Positions 15,733 through 61,225 of a DNA stretch of 64,000 nt are shown here, piece by piece. Position 1 is the first letter of the stretch; every line of letters begins with the position of its first letter. Source of the DNA: Escherichia phage RB14. Made by a program: the position numbers and the translations under genes. The notes beneath the pieces are model-generated. The model ran no database searches. It saw only the letters and a list, made by a program, of their open reading frames with translations, and was not told the DNA's origin. The stretch lies in sequence record NC_012638.1; one strand, given 5' to 3'.

Positions 15733-16697
15733 TGTATTCTTTAGAGGAATTTAATAATCAAGCAATAAACGCAGATTTCCAACGTAATAATATGTTTAGC
15801 TGCGTTTTTGCAACAACTCCATCAACTAAAAGCTCTTCGTTGATAAGTTCAATTAGCAACTTTTCTTATAATAACTTGGGCCTAAATTCAGATTGGCTAG
15901 GATTAACTCAAGGTGATATTAATCAGGGAATTACCACGCTAATTACAGCTGGCACACAAAAACTGATAAGAAAATCAGGGGTTAGTAAATATCTTATTGG
16001 TGCCATGAGTCAACGTACAGTTCAAAGTTTATTAGGCTCATTTACAGTTGGTACATATTTAATTGACTTCTTTAACATGGCATATAACTCATCTGGATTG
16101 ATGATATATTCTGTAAAAATGCCAGAGAATAGATTATCCTATGAAACTGACTGGAACTATAATTCTCCTAATATTCGTATAACTGGAAGAGAATTAGACC
16201 CTTTGGTTATTTCATTTAGAATGGATTCAGAAGCATGTAACTATCGTGCAATGCAAGACTGGGTTAACGCTGTTCAAGACCCAGTAACTGGATTACGTGC
16301 TTTGCCACAAGATGTCGAGGCAGATATTCAGGTTAATCTTCATTCTCGTAATGGATTGCCTCATACTGCGGTGATGTTCACTGGATGCATTCCAATATCA
16401 GTGAGCGCTCCTGAGTTATCATATGATGGAGATAACCAAATAACTACATTTGACGTTACTTTTGCGTATAGAGTGATGCAGGCTGGAGCAGTTGATAGGC
16501 AAGCTGCGCTTGAATGGCTTGAATCTGCTGCTATAAATGGTATTCAAAGCGTTCTCGGAAATAGTGGAGGTGTTACTGGACTACCTAATTCGCTTTCACG
16601 ACTTAGTAGATTAGGAGGAACTGCAGGAAGCATTTCAAACATTAATACTATGACAGGGATTGTCAATTCGCAGAGTAAAATATTAGGAGCAATATAA
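15732..16697 (+). CDS. 54: Baseplate tail-tube initiator gp54
   Basis: 321-aa ORF, start overlaps gp48 stop. Confidence 0.9.
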   Translation: MYSLEEFNNQAINADFQRNNMFSCVFATTPSTKSSSLISSISNFSYNNLGLNSDWLGLTQGDINQGITTLITAGTQKLIRKSGVSKYLIGAMSQRTVQSLLGSFTVGTYLIDFFNMAYNSSGLMIYSVKMPENRLSYETDWNYNSPNIRITGRELDPLVISFRMDSEACNYRAMQDWVNAVQDPVTGLRALPQDVEADIQVNLHSRNGLPHTAVMFTGCIPISVSAPELSYDGDNQITTFDVTFAYRVMQAGAVDRQAALEWLESAAINGIQSVLGNSGGVTGLPNSLSRLSRLGGTAGSISNINTMTGIVNSQSKILGAI

Positions 16698-16701
16698 CAA
16701 T

Positions 16702-16732
16702 GGGGACCTTTCGGTCCCCATATTTTTATTTA
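16702..16732 (+). terminator. Terminator after gene 54
   Basis: ggggacc-tttc-ggtcccc hairpin then T-rich tract. Confidence 0.8.
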
Positions 16733-17016
16733 CGGAATGAAATAAAAGCAGCAACTGAAGCAACTAAACTGTCTTCAATATAAACTTCAATTTTTACCGG
16801 AGCTTCTGACTCAAATTTACCTGTTACTACACCTTGAAAAATACTTTCAGTCTGTTCTGGCTTTGAAAAATTTTCAGAAGGAAAAATTCCGAACTTTTTA
16901 TCTGTTCCAAAAATTTTGATAAATTCATCGTAAACTGCTTCATTAAAAGCATTATCAGCAGGAATAACGCCTTCAACGACGAGTTCTTGACCTAAAAAGC
17001 GCAAAGAAGATTTCAT
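16726..17016 (-). CDS. Hypothetical protein (position of T4 alt.-3)
   Basis: 96-aa ORF; SD GAGG 10 nt upstream of ATG. Confidence 0.75.
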   Translation of the reverse strand: MKSSLRFLGQELVVEGVIPADNAFNEAVYDEFIKIFGTDKKFGIFPSENFSKPEQTESIFQGVVTGKFESEAPVKIEVYIEDSLVASVAAFISFRK

Positions 17017-17023
17017 TTTGTGT

Positions 17024-17077
17024 TCCTCATGTTATGTCAGTAAGACTACTATAACACAACATGAGGGACTTGTAAAC
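17024..17077 (-). promoter_or_regulatory. T4-type early promoter nested in an inverted repeat
   Basis: On - strand GTTTAC, 18 nt, TATAGT; 9-bp arms at 17025-17033 and 17058-17066, downstream arm contains the SD. Confidence 0.65.
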
Positions 17078-19134
17078 TACATTTTGAACTTTTTAGACAT
17101 TCCGTTGATGTTAACCAAAGAAGCTAAGATTTGAGAAACTTCGTTTTCCTCTTCTTTTGATTCTTCTACAAGGAATTGATTAAATCCAGCCATTGGACGA
17201 ACTTCACCAGTTTCCATTAGATGGTCGCCATCATATACTGATTCTTCTAATTGTTCAGAAGGAGGAACGATTGTACCTTCGATTAGATACTTGTTATAAG
17301 CAGTTTCTTTCATAAAGTAAGTACTTACTTTATTAATCTTCAGTAAAATTCCACGTGGTAGAATAACTTCAGCTTCTGATGGAAATCCTGATAAATGACC
17401 CGGAACGATAACTTTAACTCGTTCAGCTCCTTTAATTACCATACCCACGCTAGTTTCAGCATCTTCATTAGCATATGTAGAATGACTACCCATATGCATC
17501 AAATCTTCTGCATCAACAGAACCTTCTCCTTCGCCAGAAAATACTGCACCGGAATCATCTAGAGCCATATAGTTTTTACCATGCTCACCGAAGATATTTG
17601 GTTTAAGTGATGTCGATACGAAGTTCTTGAAATAGAACATTTTATTTTCAATGTTATGACGCAAAGTTTTAAAAGTAACTTCTTGTCCACGGTAAAGTGT
17701 AGTTCCTGGAGGAAGAACTGAACCTTTAGCAAACGCAGAATCCATAGTCTCGATGTGCTTAATAGCGCGCTCCATGTATTCTTCACGTGTAGAATCAGGT
17801 TTACCTAAAAGGAATGAGTTCATTTCAACATACGAATCTGCGCAATAATCTTCAATTACATCAGACTCAGCCTGAGTCAATCCTTTTGGAGTTACTTCAG
17901 TGCTTGCATATTCATACGCCTGAGCAGCGGATTCATCAATTAATTTATAAATTCCATTCATTACAAATTGAATAATAGCTGTCTTTTCATCTGGTGTAGC
18001 TTTAGAACCTTTAACTAAATCATTGATAATTTTCTTAATAACATCAAAACTATTAGAAATATTAATATCAGCAAGATCGCTTAAAATTTTATCAGTTTTG
18101 TAATTAAAGAAGTCTTTATTCTTTAAATATTCCTGGGAACCTTGATATGATGTATCGCTCTGCAACTTGATAGATGGATCGCGTAAACGTGCATGGGCTA
18201 ATGCAATATGATTTCGGAAACTTTCTAGTTCATAATCGTTAGATTTAAAACGAGAAGCACTTCTCATACCGCCGATAGCTCCTTTGCCGAAGTTTGAACC
18301 AATCTGAATAACGCCAGAGTTCATTGGTCCTTCTGCTTTATATACCGGAACTTTAGATTCAAACTCTTGATATTTCTTAGCAGCGAAGCTATCACCCTGA
18401 AGTGAAGCATCAACAGTAGAATATTGAGCTTGTGCTGCTAATCGACGACTAATTTTAGTTTTCTGAATAACAGCTTGATCCGTACGCTTATCATTTTCTA
18501 AAGCAATAGAAGCAGCAACTGCGACAGCTTTAGGAACAGCATTACCTGTTTTAACGTCTACATAAACATCACCAACCTTTGATTCAACTTTTGTGAATAA
18601 CTCAGTTGAAATAGGAGGTACACCTGGAATGTCTTCTAAATTGGCATTTTTACGGTAAACCATAATATATGCATATTTCTTATCATAGTCCCAGATTTCC
18701 TTTAAAAGAACATATCGACCTGCTCCTTTAGTACGTACTAAACGGTCAGCAATAACTTGCATTTGACGAGCAGCGCCATTTGTTTTACTTTTTAGTACGC
18801 GGAATAGGCATGCATCAATTTTATACTGTTTCATTGTTTGAAGAGCAGTATCAAAAACCGCATTAATGACACCAATTGGATTTCCACCCAAGTTTTTAAG
18901 CTTAACTAACGATAATTTCTCATTAACACCTATCATTACGATATGCATCATTTTGTCGCCTGGCTTAACGTTTTTATTCGTATCACCGCCAGAGGTGTAT
19001 GTACAAAATCGAAATCCAGGAAGAACGCTTTCTTCACCGGCTTGAATAGCAAAAATTTGAGGTATTTTATGCTTAGGATTTAAGTTAACAACCGGCGCCG
19101 AAGCGCCGTCAAATAATTCTGTAATAAGTTCCAT
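17077..19134 (-). CDS. Alt-family mono-ADP-ribosyltransferase paralog
   Basis: 685-aa ORF; shares N- and C-terminal blocks with the adjacent 698-aa ORF; Arg (LYRGQ), STS (FVSTSL) and ExE (SEAEVILPRG) motifs. Confidence 0.85.
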   Translation of the reverse strand: MELITELFDGASAPVVNLNPKHKIPQIFAIQAGEESVLPGFRFCTYTSGGDTNKNVKPGDKMMHIVMIGVNEKLSLVKLKNLGGNPIGVINAVFDTALQTMKQYKIDACLFRVLKSKTNGAARQMQVIADRLVRTKGAGRYVLLKEIWDYDKKYAYIMVYRKNANLEDIPGVPPISTELFTKVESKVGDVYVDVKTGNAVPKAVAVAASIALENDKRTDQAVIQKTKISRRLAAQAQYSTVDASLQGDSFAAKKYQEFESKVPVYKAEGPMNSGVIQIGSNFGKGAIGGMRSASRFKSNDYELESFRNHIALAHARLRDPSIKLQSDTSYQGSQEYLKNKDFFNYKTDKILSDLADINISNSFDVIKKIINDLVKGSKATPDEKTAIIQFVMNGIYKLIDESAAQAYEYASTEVTPKGLTQAESDVIEDYCADSYVEMNSFLLGKPDSTREEYMERAIKHIETMDSAFAKGSVLPPGTTLYRGQEVTFKTLRHNIENKMFYFKNFVSTSLKPNIFGEHGKNYMALDDSGAVFSGEGEGSVDAEDLMHMGSHSTYANEDAETSVGMVIKGAERVKVIVPGHLSGFPSEAEVILPRGILLKINKVSTYFMKETAYNKYLIEGTIVPPSEQLEESVYDGDHLMETGEVRPMAGFNQFLVEESKEEENEVSQILASLVNINGMSKKFKM

Positions 19135-25600: not shown

Positions 25601-25640
25601 GGTACAGGTATATAATATCATATCCTGTACCAAAGTAAAC
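25601..25640 (-). promoter_or_regulatory. T4-type early promoter with inverted repeat
   Basis: On - strand GTTTAC, 17 nt, TATTAT; arms ggtacagg (25601-25608) and cctgtacc (25624-25631). Confidence 0.6.
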
Positions 25641-25642
25641 AA

Positions 25643-25975
25643 TTATTTTACTACTTTCCAATGCTTCATATCAAGTTTACCAACTTTTTTCATCTTCTCA
25701 ATTAAGCGTTCGGCACGTTGGCGAGCTGTAACATAATACCATTCACCTAATTCATTTTGTTCAATTTTTCCAACGATTACTGTATTCAATTCATAAATCC
25801 AACCAGTAAAGAAATTATGAACTTGAATTGTAAAGGTGAAATCTGTTCCCATACCTTCTGTTGTTTCTACTTCAATAATATCACCTTCAACTGCCATTAA
25901 GAACCACATAGTTTCATCATATTTACCATTGAAGCATTTAGTTTTAACTGCAGCGTTCAGATTAATCGTTTTCAT
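25643..25975 (-). CDS. Hypothetical 110-aa protein
   Basis: ATG start. Confidence 0.65.
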   Translation of the reverse strand: MKTINLNAAVKTKCFNGKYDETMWFLMAVEGDIIEVETTEGMGTDFTFTIQVHNFFTGWIYELNTVIVGKIEQNELGEWYYVTARQRAERLIEKMKKVGKLDMKHWKVVK

Positions 25976-26048
25976 TTTATTCTCCTTTGTTTGTGTAAGA
26001 TAATACTATCACAAAGGAACCATACTGTAAACAACTTTGTGCAATCTT

Positions 26049-31949: not shown

Positions 31950-32299
31950 TTAGAAAGATCCTGGATGTCTTCTGCGAACTTGCTAAAGGAATTGTTGATT
32001 TGTTTTTCAACCAATCCTGGCTTACTAGCCACCACATCCGCCTTCTTCGCATCTTTACGCAGTTTTTCATTTTCACGCTCAATTGCAGCAATTGATTCAC
32101 GATTTTTATTATTCATTGCATCAATATAATTATATTGATTTTTTAAATCATTTAATGCTAAAGCATTTTCATTAGCAGTTTTTGTAATTTCTACGACAGA
32201 CGTTTCTAATCTTTCAATTTTGTGTTTTAAAACTAAAGAAGTTCCGCCCAATGTAATTACAATTAATAGTAAACCTGCTGTAGTATTACTTAATTGCAT
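31946..32299 (-). CDS. Inner-membrane spanin (Rz equivalent)
   Basis: 117-aa ORF; N-terminal transmembrane helix then coiled-coil-like region; directly upstream of the lipoprotein. Confidence 0.75.
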   Translation of the reverse strand: MQLSNTTAGLLLIVITLGGTSLVLKHKIERLETSVVEITKTANENALALNDLKNQYNYIDAMNNKNRESIAAIERENEKLRKDAKKADVVASKPGLVEKQINNSFSKFAEDIQDLSK

Positions 32300-32796
32300 A
32301 AAGTTTTAATAACCTCTATAATATCGTCTTGAGAAAGACCGTTAATTAAAATATGATGTTCAGCTGGAGATTTAGAAATTTTAAAGCATGCCGCAACATC
32401 TTCTGCCATATCTGATGCACTACGATTTGGATTACTAATTCCAAGACGATGCTTTCCAGTCAAAGGATTAACGATGATATAGCATTTGCAGCTATTGATA
32501 TGAACATTGGGTTGAGTCTGATTAATGAACACTTCACAATCATACTTAGCGAGTTGATTTTCTAAAAAGACTTTCATCTCTTCAACCGCATCAGGAAGCA
32601 TATCACGGGCTTGCTCAAGACGACGATTTCGATATTCTTTAATGGTCGTTTTCCGCTTGACTTGCTTAGCTAAATCTTTCTTAAGATCGGTGATATATCC
32701 AACTCGACGATTTCCTTTGAATACAGAAATCCCATCTGTAGTATCACCGTATGCTTCAACGACCATTTCAGTAGTAATAAGTTGTAAATCCATCAT
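32290..32796 (-). CDS. alc: Alc (inhibitor of host transcription on cytosine DNA)
   Basis: 168-aa ORF (MMDLQLIT...) recognised as T4 Alc. Confidence 0.88.
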   Translation of the reverse strand: MMDLQLITTEMVVEAYGDTTDGISVFKGNRRVGYITDLKKDLAKQVKRKTTIKEYRNRRLEQARDMLPDAVEEMKVFLENQLAKYDCEVFINQTQPNVHINSCKCYIIVNPLTGKHRLGISNPNRSASDMAEDVAACFKISKSPAEHHILINGLSQDDIIEVIKTLCN

Positions 32797-32800
32797 AAAG

Positions 32801-32854
32801 TCCTCATGTTATGTCAGTAAGACTACTGTAACACAACACGAGGGACTTGTAAAC
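32801..32854 (-). promoter_or_regulatory. T4-type early promoter nested in an inverted repeat (upstream of alc)
   Basis: Near-identical to 17024-17077; arms at 32802-32810 and 32835-32843 (one G-U wobble). Confidence 0.65.
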
Positions 32855-32857
32855 AGC

Positions 32858-34445
<1,588 letters not shown>

Positions 34446-41310: not shown

Positions 41311-41541
41311 TTATTGTTCAATCAATCCCATGTAAAATTCTGCGTCTTCAGAATCCATGCCATCACAATATTCATTAGCCATAAAGCGGGTGAGGTCTTC
41401 AAGAGGACCTTCAATGACAATAGAAAAATTGCAATAATTGGGATCATCGTGAATACTTGTGATACTAAGTTCAGGATAACGATTACGAATAATTTCTTCG
41501 ATATATTCAAAATCAACGATGTCAATATCAACTTTAGCCAT
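41311..41541 (-). CDS. Hypothetical acidic protein
   Basis: Track ORF to 41574; SD-preceded ATG at 41541 (MAKVDIDIV..., 76 aa) lies downstream of the early promoter. Confidence 0.6.
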
Positions 41542-41578
41542 ATTATTTTCCTCTTTAATCATCATCAGCAGCATTGCC

Positions 41579-41653
41579 GATAGTTGTATAGTACCACAGT
41601 ATGCTTTGGTTGTAAACCGTTTTGTGAAAAAATTTTTGAAATAAAAAAGGGGA
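41579..41653. repeat. Direct repeat copy 1 (about 73 bp, one mismatch vs 58049-58123)
   Basis: 59 bp identical, then 1 mismatch, then 13 bp identical. Confidence 0.85.
41590..41617 (-). promoter_or_regulatory. T4-type early promoter (repeat family B, copy 1)
   Basis: On - strand GTTTACA, 18 nt, TACTAT. Confidence 0.65.
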
Positions 41654-57380: not shown

Positions 57381-58016
57381 TCACAGTTCAGATGCTACAG
57401 CGATTACTGCTTCAATGTTTTCTGCTGAGCGTTTAATGTCAAGATACACATTACCGTTTTTAGCGATTTTACAAGACATTCCGATATCAGTAAATTTCTG
57501 AATATGATGTTCCATCATTTTGTATCCAAAAATTCGCATATTTCCATTATTGTTAATTTCAAAATTACGAATTCCGTGAGTGCGTTTTTCTAAAATAGCG
57601 AGATAGTTACTGCGATAAGTTTCAACCTTTTTAAGAACAAATCCATTTTCATCTAAAAGTTTTAACATGAGATCTTTATCTTCTTCCATATCAGAAGTAA
57701 TCTCACGAGCTTTACGAGTTGCTCGTTTTTTCAGTAGTTCCGGAGCATTTTCCTGTGCGTATAAAGTTGCTGCGTTTGAAATAATATCCTGGGCTTCACC
57801 TGTAATGATTAATCCATCACCAGATTTCTCCACCAGGCCTTTTTTAATCAATACCCCAATATTACTATTAACTACTGCGTTACCTAAATCTGGATGCACC
57901 TCACGAACTTCTGCAGCTGTAATAAAATCTTTCTTAGCAATAGTAATTAAAATCGCAGCAGTTTTTTCATTCAGAACATCGTTAGAAGCTTTGATGATGT
58001 AAGTTACTTTAGACAT
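57381..58016 (-). CDS. motA: Middle-transcription activator MotA
   Basis: 211-aa ORF recognised as T4 MotA. Confidence 0.93.
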   Translation of the reverse strand: MSKVTYIIKASNDVLNEKTAAILITIAKKDFITAAEVREVHPDLGNAVVNSNIGVLIKKGLVEKSGDGLIITGEAQDIISNAATLYAQENAPELLKKRATRKAREITSDMEEDKDLMLKLLDENGFVLKKVETYRSNYLAILEKRTHGIRNFEINNNGNMRIFGYKMMEHHIQKFTDIGMSCKIAKNGNVYLDIKRSAENIEAVIAVASEL

Positions 58017-58048
58017 TTTCTAATCTCCGTAATTCTGTATCAGTAGTT

Positions 58049-58123
58049 GATAGTTGTATAGTACCACAGTATGCTTTGGTTGTAAACCGTTTTGTGAAAA
58101 AATTTTTAAATAAAAAAGGGAGA
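58049..58123. repeat. Direct repeat copy 2 (pairs with 41579-41653)
   Basis: Same 59 bp plus 13 bp as copy 1. Confidence 0.85.
58055..58087 (-). promoter_or_regulatory. T4-type early promoter for motA (repeat family B, copy 2)
   Basis: On - strand GTTTACA, 18 nt, TACTAT; identical to 41590-41617. Confidence 0.7.
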
Positions 58124-61053: not shown

Positions 61054-61167
61054 TCACATAAATCCAAAGTAAGCGTTTAATACATCAATCATTAAAACGA
61101 TTGGGAATATACTCAAAACTATTAGTATTATAACTACATTCCATATAGCTTTAACAATCTTTTTCAT
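61054..61167 (-). CDS. Small membrane peptide (37 aa)
   Basis: MKKIVKAIWNVVIILIVLSIF...; ATG 61167 lies 9 nt after GGAGG and downstream of the early promoter; the track extension to 61263 spans the promoter. Confidence 0.55.
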   Translation of the reverse strand: MKKIVKAIWNVVIILIVLSIFPIVLMIDVLNAYFGFM

Positions 61168-61195
61168 TTTGTGTTCCTCCGTAGTTGATAGGGTA

Positions 61196-61225
61196 ATAGT
61201 ACCACGGAGGAACAGTCTTGTAAAC
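61196..61225 (-). promoter_or_regulatory. T4-type early promoter nested in an inverted repeat
   Basis: On - strand GTTTACA, 18 nt, TACTAT; arms 61174-61182 and 61204-61212, downstream arm contains GGAGG. Confidence 0.65.

Follow-up and report, generated by a model that had tools for sequence, protein, structure and literature searches.

What does the short sequence that fills the gap between rnlA and alc in Escherichia phage RB14 do for the gene behind it? The window analysed here, a stretch of 64,000 nucleotides from record NC_012638.1, is Tequatrovirus (T4-like phage) DNA: positions 32000-34200 have their closest DNA match in RB18 (97.8% identity) and are covered to at least 80% of the query in 495 phage records. 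Around the gap, the minus strand carries nrdB, denA, rnlA, alc, pseT.3, pseT.2, pseT.1 and pseT, in this order. A first-pass annotation had described the gap as a promoter lying inside a hairpin, with another copy elsewhere in the window.

The cassette, its promoter and its hairpin

The repeat is as close as that annotation claimed. A 54-mer of the form GTTTACAAGTCCCTC[G/A]TGTTGTGTTA[C/T]AGTAGTCTTACTGACATAACATGAGGA is present at 32801-32854 and at 17024-17077, both on the minus strand, with 52 of 54 bases identical and hence two mismatches, while 100 dinucleotide-preserving shuffles gave no match. Homology between the copies runs from one base 5' of the -35 hexamer to the A that follows GAGG, the SD; on either side of it the two loci are unrelated. 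The position between the rnlA stop and the alc ATG was likewise given correctly. The elements are these:

32858-32860, minus strand: stop codon TAA of rnlA (RNA ligase 1, gene 63), 4 nt 5' of the -35 hexamer
32801-32854, minus strand: 54-nt cassette, alc copy, a G and the -35 hexamer through the SD GAGGA, filling the gap from the rnlA stop to the alc ATG
32848-32853, minus strand: -35 hexamer TTTACA, unchanged throughout an alignment of 28 leaders that represent many genera
32831-32848, minus strand: 5' arm (anti-SD) of the hairpin, within the spacer of the promoter and hence ahead of the predicted start; its core is CCUCGUGUU
32825-32830, minus strand: -10 hexamer TACAGT, with TGn before it and a 17-nt spacer, near the hairpin top
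32818, minus strand: predicted transcription start, an A 7 nt after the -10 hexamer, placed by this spacing
32798-32814, minus strand: 3' arm of the hairpin, core AACAUGAGG, containing the SD GAGG at 32802-32805
32791-32796, minus strand: alc start region ATGATG, first ATG at 32794-32796
17024-17077, minus strand: second cassette copy, after the alt stop and before the alt.-3 ATG (17014-17016)
17071-17076, 17048-17053, 17025-17028 and 17041, minus strand: -35 hexamer, -10 hexamer TATAGT, SD GAGG and predicted +1 of the alt.-3 copy

The T4 annotation puts the start of alc at the second ATG, 32791-32793.

A consensus scan reads the cassette as TTTACA, a 17-nt spacer, and TACAGT (alc copy) or TATAGT (alt.-3 copy) with a TGn extended -10. 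This matches the T4/PST consensus TTTACW-N17-TAYWAT (Comeau et al. 2014, PMC4122927) and fits the description of T4 early promoters as UP/-35/TGn/-10 (PMC2988021). The record of a related phage, fPS-65, labels the site a 'predicted early promoter'; in the T4 GenBank records, promoter features were not found at the cassette loci. In an alignment of 28 leaders, the -35 hexamer, the TG and the TA...T of the -10 hexamer are invariant or nearly so across genera, and so, nearly, is the start A (alignment column 36). The cassette thus holds a promoter of the sigma-70/T4-early type, whose activity is predicted. In both copies the predicted +1 (32818 and 17041, corresponding to about 136.30 kb and 123.06 kb of T4) falls between the hairpin arms, so that transcripts starting there would have leaders of 22-25 nt (22 nt for alc) from which the 5' arm is absent.

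The arms behave as the first-pass annotation proposed: the cores CCUCGUGUU (32835-32843) and AACAUGAGG (32802-32810) form exactly 9 bp, one of them a G.U pair, and the downstream arm contains the SD of alc, GAGG at 32802-32805. In the minimum-energy fold the helix is longer than this core and spans 32798-32848. That annotation had named the lack of a stable hairpin in the read-through RNA as a reason to abandon its reading; such a hairpin is predicted, at -29 kcal/mol with a z-score of -4.12 for alc (equally stable shuffles, 0 of 200) and at -23.7 kcal/mol with a z-score of -3.5 for alt.-3. The RNA from the predicted start, by comparison, is essentially unstructured (about -2 kcal/mol, z about 0). 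For alc, the computed probability that the SD is unpaired is 0.00 in read-through RNA, folded with 40 nt of upstream context, versus 0.49 in promoter-initiated RNA. The short alt.-3 transcript shows weak predicted pairing of the SD with its own coding region (probability unpaired 0.09, about -2 kcal/mol). A search of the whole window against Rfam 15 gave no match at the gathering score.

Covariation among alc leaders of the Tevenvirinae

If the pairing matters, it should be kept where the sequence is not. We gathered rnlA-alc junctions from ten other genera in an annotated phage collection, together with 42 IMG/VR loci found with an Alc protein profile. Most Tevenvirinae lineages share one layout: a stop codon, TTTACA, the 5' arm beginning 1-5 nt further on, TGn, the -10 hexamer and the conserved A, then a leader rich in C and A, the 3' arm with the SD at its end and, after A-rich sequence, the ATG. 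Helices of 8 or more uninterrupted pairs that include 3 or more nucleotides of the SD occur in 27 of 37 distinct alc leaders, and these are made by 17 distinct arm pairs, among them CCUCGUGUU/AACAUGAGG, CUCCAUUUGGUU/AACCAAAUGGAG, CCUCAUUUCGUUG/UAACGAAAUGAGG and CCUCUCGUUUUUG/CAAAAACGAGAGG. Close relatives differ by double compensatory changes, as in CUCAUUUUU/AAAAUGAG versus CUCGUUUUU/AAAACGAG, CAUUUGG/CCAAAUG versus CGUUUGG/CCAAACG, and UUUUG/CAAAA versus UUUCG/CGAAA. Within Tequatrovirus, stem-arm variants at paired positions still pair (A-U/G.U in the 5' arm, U-A/U.G in the 3' arm), and the remaining cassette variants are located in the -10 hexamer, the loop or a bulge.

The 28-leader MAFFT alignment is almost ungapped, yet the register of the helix varies by lineage (i+j = 59, 60 or 63). 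No single consensus structure can therefore be counted on it, and an 11-sequence subset in the same register was used along with alignment-free tests. In this subset 93.5% of the cells pair, versus 39-46% with the partner slid by 1-3 columns; changes on both sides occur at 4 pairs, in 13 cells, and the covariation score was reached by none of 500 shuffles. Free of any alignment, the mean duplex energy between spacer and leader is -15.6 kcal/mol for cognate and -9.4 kcal/mol for non-cognate combinations of alc leaders, and over the 37 distinct leaders the median probability of an unpaired SD is 0.0006 in read-through RNA versus 0.45 in promoter-initiated RNA. A covariance model was put to use as a detector only, its alignment having taken in reverse-strand palindrome hits and misplaced the arms of the T4 type; as a detector it recovers both cassette copies and an instance before gene 30.8, described below.

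These comparisons indicate that the hairpin element is functionally constrained. An origin of the repeat by chance or as a neutral duplicate, which we also considered, is ruled out by the shuffles together with the covariation. The promoter-in-hairpin reading of the first-pass annotation is thereby upheld computationally, through the promoter match, the pairing of the SD in read-through RNA only, and the compensatory changes in the arms.

In 10 of the 37 alc leaders the spacer does not sequester the SD, including those of the Mosigvirus-like and Kanagawavirus-like lineages, Ac42 and 44RR. The Mosigvirus-like and two other lineages have a small hairpin within the spacer only, in the Kanagawavirus-like leaders and a related group a strong hairpin encloses the -10 hexamer and ends 2-4 nt before the SD, and in Ac42, 44RR and one other alc leader pairing between spacer and SD was not found. 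Since some exceptions carry hairpins that bracket the -10 hexamer or lie inside the spacer, hairpins at early promoters may have another or an additional role. Gaprivervirus has an additional ORF between rnlA and alc; it encodes 77 aa, bears the annotation 'inhibitor of host transcription', and has a terminator-like hairpin, AAAAGGGGTGTACAAGCCCCTTCTTTCT, ahead of it and a small hairpin of its own over the SD.

The alt.-3 copy and similar layouts at other early genes

The gene 3' of the copy at 17024-17077 is an orthologue of T4 alt.-3, 100% identical. In T4, alt and the cassette are separated by alt.-1/alt.-2, a segment that partially duplicates the beginning (5' part) of alt; this segment is missing in RB14, where alt therefore adjoins the cassette directly, and the alt.-3 copy borders the indel. 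At the level of single bases (window 17017-17100 against T4 123033-123453), no nucleotide separates the end of RB14 alt from the first G of the repeat, and the annotated alt.-2 frame of T4 enters the cassette and terminates inside its -10 box. Beyond alt.-3, a perfect 9-bp, G+C-rich hairpin lies at 16700-16721, where genes 54 and alt.-3 converge; it has a terminator score on both strands, with a T-rich tail on the plus strand only, and is likely a bidirectional terminator.

How much weight can the second copy bear? The first-pass annotation took the conservation of the cassette at two unrelated genes as a sign that it acts as a unit. The near-identity is real, and the cassette occupies 995 places in about 498 Tequatrovirus records, essentially two per genome. 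Pattern scans of IMG/VR and of metagenomes (7 and 9 stretches) returned alc or alt.-3 in every case and no third gene. In other genera, however, alt.-3 has an early promoter of another type, with a mini-hairpin in the spacer (e.g. CCACAAGGAUGUGG) and no occlusion of the SD, so the identity of the copies does not amount to independent conservation; the genomes with this different alt.-3 promoter still carry the long hairpin at alc. On these sequences, the near-identity is best described as the outcome of a Tequatrovirus-specific copy or gene-conversion event, and the argument from two genes is weaker than claimed.

A second, independent exchange between alc and alt.-3 is seen in a Dhakavirus-like genome (IMG/VR 2706795356, alc locus 1148-1206). 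Here the 3' half of the alc leader, CCTTACACAAACATGAGGAGAACATTATG, equals the genome's own alt.-3 leader over 29 identical nucleotides, from about +1 to the ATG, while its 5' half belongs with the alc leaders of Dhakavirus; the hairpin is kept. Judged by their sequences, alc and alt.-3 have thus exchanged leaders more than once. Such behaviour fits the 'mobile regulatory cassette' idea put forward for PeSLs, which consist of a sigma-70-like early promoter, a stem-loop, an SD and an ATG and are repeated in T4-type genomes (Arbiol et al. 2010, PMC2839356); they have also been reported in T4/PST (Comeau et al. 2014, PMC4122927) and are implicated in sequence exchange between loci. Mutants in the C-terminal extension of Alt.-3 evade the CmdTAC defence (PMC11618068); the escape mutations lie outside the cassette and are therefore uninformative about it.

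Is the layout confined to these two genes? We scanned the RB14 window and T4 coordinates 1-78 kb for sites that resemble early promoters and have an SD and a start codon behind them. Strong duplexes between spacer and leader precede regB (-20.7 kcal/mol), nrdC.8 (-20.0), denV (-17.8) and motB.2 (-15.7) in T4 and, in the window, a 37-aa ORF at 61.2 kb (-23.0) besides alc and alt.-3; gene 30.8 has a weaker one (-11.3). Duplexes of -15 kcal/mol or stronger occur at 7 of 33 early promoter-gene junctions, a count that includes both near-identical cassette copies, versus 10 of 1056 non-cognate pairings, and none of 5000 permutations equalled the observed count. In the strong-duplex leaders the probability of a free SD rises from 0.00 in the long RNA to 0.2-0.6 in the short RNA. 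The instances at genes other than alc and alt.-3 are unrelated in sequence to the 54-nt cassette. Two of them lie in the window:

25973-26031, minus strand: weaker instance before the orthologue of gene 30.8, a 9-bp stem UUCCUUUGU/ACAAAGGAG over the SD AAGGAG
61165-61224, minus strand: instance before the 37-aa ORF, 5' arm GTTCCTCCGT and 3' arm ACGGAGGAAC over the SD GGAGG, -23 kcal/mol

At 30.8, the read-through RNA folds with -18.9 kcal/mol (z -3.2) versus 0 for the promoter-initiated RNA. The cassette at 61165-61224 is homologous to the one before T4 nrdC.8, and its leader end, GGAGGAACACAAAATG, is common to the alt.-3 leader; the 37-aa ORF that follows it is hydrophobic (MKKIVKAIWNVVIILIVLSIFPIVLMIDVLNAYFGFM).

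Altogether, about one fifth to one quarter of the T4 early promoter-gene junctions have an anti-SD in the spacer, namely those of alc, alt.-3, regB, denV, motB.2, nrdC.8, 30.8 and a small membrane-protein ORF. It is possible, though we would not yet count on it, that a spacer anti-SD is common among the early promoters of T-even phages, a design not remarked on before, kept up by compensatory change across the Tevenvirinae, carried about as a mobile cassette, and permitting translation from the promoter's own transcript only.

The window contains other repeated or palindromic promoters. The stretches 41541-41616 and 58016-58086 (both minus strand) share an identical 38-nt region from the -35 hexamer to the start, TTTACAACCAAAGCATACTGTGGTACTATACAACTATC, before different ORFs (76 and 211 aa), and this duplicated promoter cassette is without SD occlusion. 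At promoter-like sites starting at 25639, 29547 and 40900 (minus strand), inverted repeats bracket the -10 hexamer only, e.g. GGTACAGG...CCTGTACC; these sites resemble PeSL classes of Arbiol et al. 2010.

The proposed mechanism and its alternatives

The reading we favour, and consider fairly probable, is that translation of alc and alt.-3 is restricted to promoter-proximal early transcripts; the start site, the read-through and the translational effect enter it as predictions. On this view the cassette is an autonomous expression module for a gene of the immediate-early class. Host sigma-70 RNA polymerase would initiate at the embedded early promoter, about 22-25 nt 5' of the ATG. The short transcript would carry the 3' arm only, so that its SD is open and alc (or alt.-3) is translated. 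Read-through RNAs, arriving at alc via nrdB-denA-rnlA and at alt.-3 via gene 30-alt, would bring the spacer along; since the spacer encodes the anti-SD, they should fold into a helix of about 13-18 bp in which the SD is buried. The buried SD would prevent 30S binding on transcripts initiated upstream, and synthesis of the protein would depend on the firing of the proximal early promoter, regardless of later read-through. As early promoters are shut off within minutes (PMC3014915), the proposal would confine the synthesis of Alc and Alt.-3 to the early period.

Sources of long transcripts are at hand in T4, where the middle promoters PI-TevIII, PnrdB and PnrdA lie upstream of rnlA and P30 lies upstream of alt.-3 (PMC2988021, Table 1). 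The T4 omics classes (PMC9697503) list alc and alt.-3 as early RNA and early protein, rnlA as early RNA and late protein, and alt as late; they are consistent with the model, short of proving it. Because the rnlA RNA is itself early, short and long transcripts differ less clearly in timing at alc than at alt.-3. A DksA RNA-seq paper contains nothing on alc or alt.-3.

Precedent for such a device comes from T4 genes e, soc, 49 and I-TevI, in which transcripts arriving from upstream have the SD and/or the AUG locked in a helix, and the transcript of an internal promoter, being without the 5' strand, is well translated (PMC3014915, section 29). As in these genes, the SD of the cassette lies in a stable helix of the long RNA, and its own predicted transcript is without the 5' arm. 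The same partition-function calculation, applied to the experimentally validated hairpin of gene e, gives a probability of a free SD of 0.00 in the long versus 0.84 in the short RNA. The known cases, however, have late promoters (TATAAATA), which delay expression to the late period, whereas the promoter of the cassette is of the early sigma-70 type and has no TATAAATA; moreover, the anti-SD of the cassette is located in the spacer between -35 and -10, and the predicted outcome is reversed to early-only expression. By analogy, the cassette would employ the mechanism of e, soc, 49 and I-TevI with an early promoter and opposite timing, the translational effect being predicted. The T4 review (PMC3014915) mentions neither alc nor any case of a hairpin at an early promoter, and the full-text literature searched, with the older subscription literature outside its scope, contained no description of an SD-masking hairpin at an early T4 promoter.

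Descriptively, the cassette also qualifies as a PeSL: it is an intergenic early promoter with an overlapping stem-loop and with SD and ATG at its 3' end, it is repeated in the genome, and it is associated with exchanges and indels. Could it then be an insulator of the PeSL type, whose stem-loop terminates or attenuates upstream transcription before the promoter restarts it, the overlap with the SD being incidental? The published descriptions present PeSL stem-loops as compact structures, within or ahead of the promoter, that terminate or attenuate transcription, and SD occlusion is not discussed in them (PMC2839356, PMC4122927). They may sit between -35 and -10 or overlap the -10 hexamer, and one stem-loop of RB49 reduced downstream lacZ about as much as rrnB T1 did (Arbiol et al. 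2010, PMC2839356). In our own material, hairpins that fall short of the SD occur in several alc leaders and at other promoters of the window. The helix of the cassette is, however, longer than that of PeSLs, reaching from the spacer past the start site as far as the SD, and the alc copy resides in the syntenically stable rnlA-alc junction rather than in a hyperplastic region. Like an intrinsic terminator, the cassette places a stable stem-loop directly after a stop codon, but its stem is only moderately G+C-rich and lacks a U run; in no lineage does a U run follow the 3' arm, the sequence being A-rich instead (GGAGAAAACGAA, GAGGAACACAAAAUG). A scan for intrinsic terminators found no site in 32300-33300 and none at the cassette in 16500-17500. 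A pure terminator would also leave unexplained why the 3' arm covers the SD in 27 of 37 leaders, and would not need a 5' arm that is always upstream of the predicted start. We regard an insulator as an unlikely account of the cassette.

A poorer prospect, to our mind, is translational coupling, in which ribosomes that complete rnlA melt the stem base, so that the yield of Alc from read-through RNA follows the level of rnlA translation. The geometry would allow it: in nearly all hairpin-bearing lineages 0-5 nt separate the upstream stop codon and the -35 hexamer, and the first paired bases, the partners of the SD, come about 7-10 nt past this stop, within reach of a terminating ribosome. The rnlA-terminating ribosome might thus open the stem base, resulting in coupling instead of silencing. 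Yet the stem continues for 13-18 bp beyond the ribosome's reach and would quickly re-form, the tight spacing of the stop may merely reflect the gene density of T4, and the 61.2-kb instance has the same layout behind an A/T-rich non-coding stretch.

A role in RNA protection or processing, with the pairing on long transcripts either shielding an intergenic GGAG from the endoribonuclease RegB or creating a site for double-strand-specific cleavage, and so affecting mRNA stability instead of initiation, is in our estimate very improbable. While GGAG or GAGGAG serves as the SD in many non-T4 alc leaders, the SD of the T4-type cassette, GAGGA, is without GGAG, and SD occlusion is kept whatever the motif (GAGG, GGAG or GGGG). 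Least probable of all is a DNA-level palindrome acting as a protein site, a promoter-modulating cruciform or a recombination substrate that spreads the cassette: covariation alone cannot separate DNA from RNA pairing, and the cassette has clearly moved between loci (Tequatrovirus alt.-3; Dhakavirus-like alc/alt.-3), but a protein site would keep its sequence, whereas the arms vary freely and complementarity alone is conserved, the core arms are 24 nt and the extended arms 16 nt apart, a wide spacing that disfavours cruciform extrusion, G.U pairs occur on the sense strand, and the placement of the arms relative to start site and SD is explained at the RNA level only.

What would restriction of translation to the promoter's own transcript mean for the phage? 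Work on the timing of phage gene expression takes T4 as its reference system, and the shut-off of early proteins is usually explained by the shut-down of early promoters together with cleavage by RegB. If true, the mechanism proposed here would add a third, purely cis-acting layer to this shut-off, rendering middle and late read-through RNAs translationally silent for a defined subset of early genes. This subset includes the regulators Alc, RegB and MotB.2, whose dose probably matters. The stem-loops of at least some PeSLs would thereby acquire a functional reason besides termination, and the spacer of a promoter could carry a second code at the level of the RNA. Such a cassette would be a compact part of about 60 nt that ties the expression of a gene to one promoter in any genomic context.
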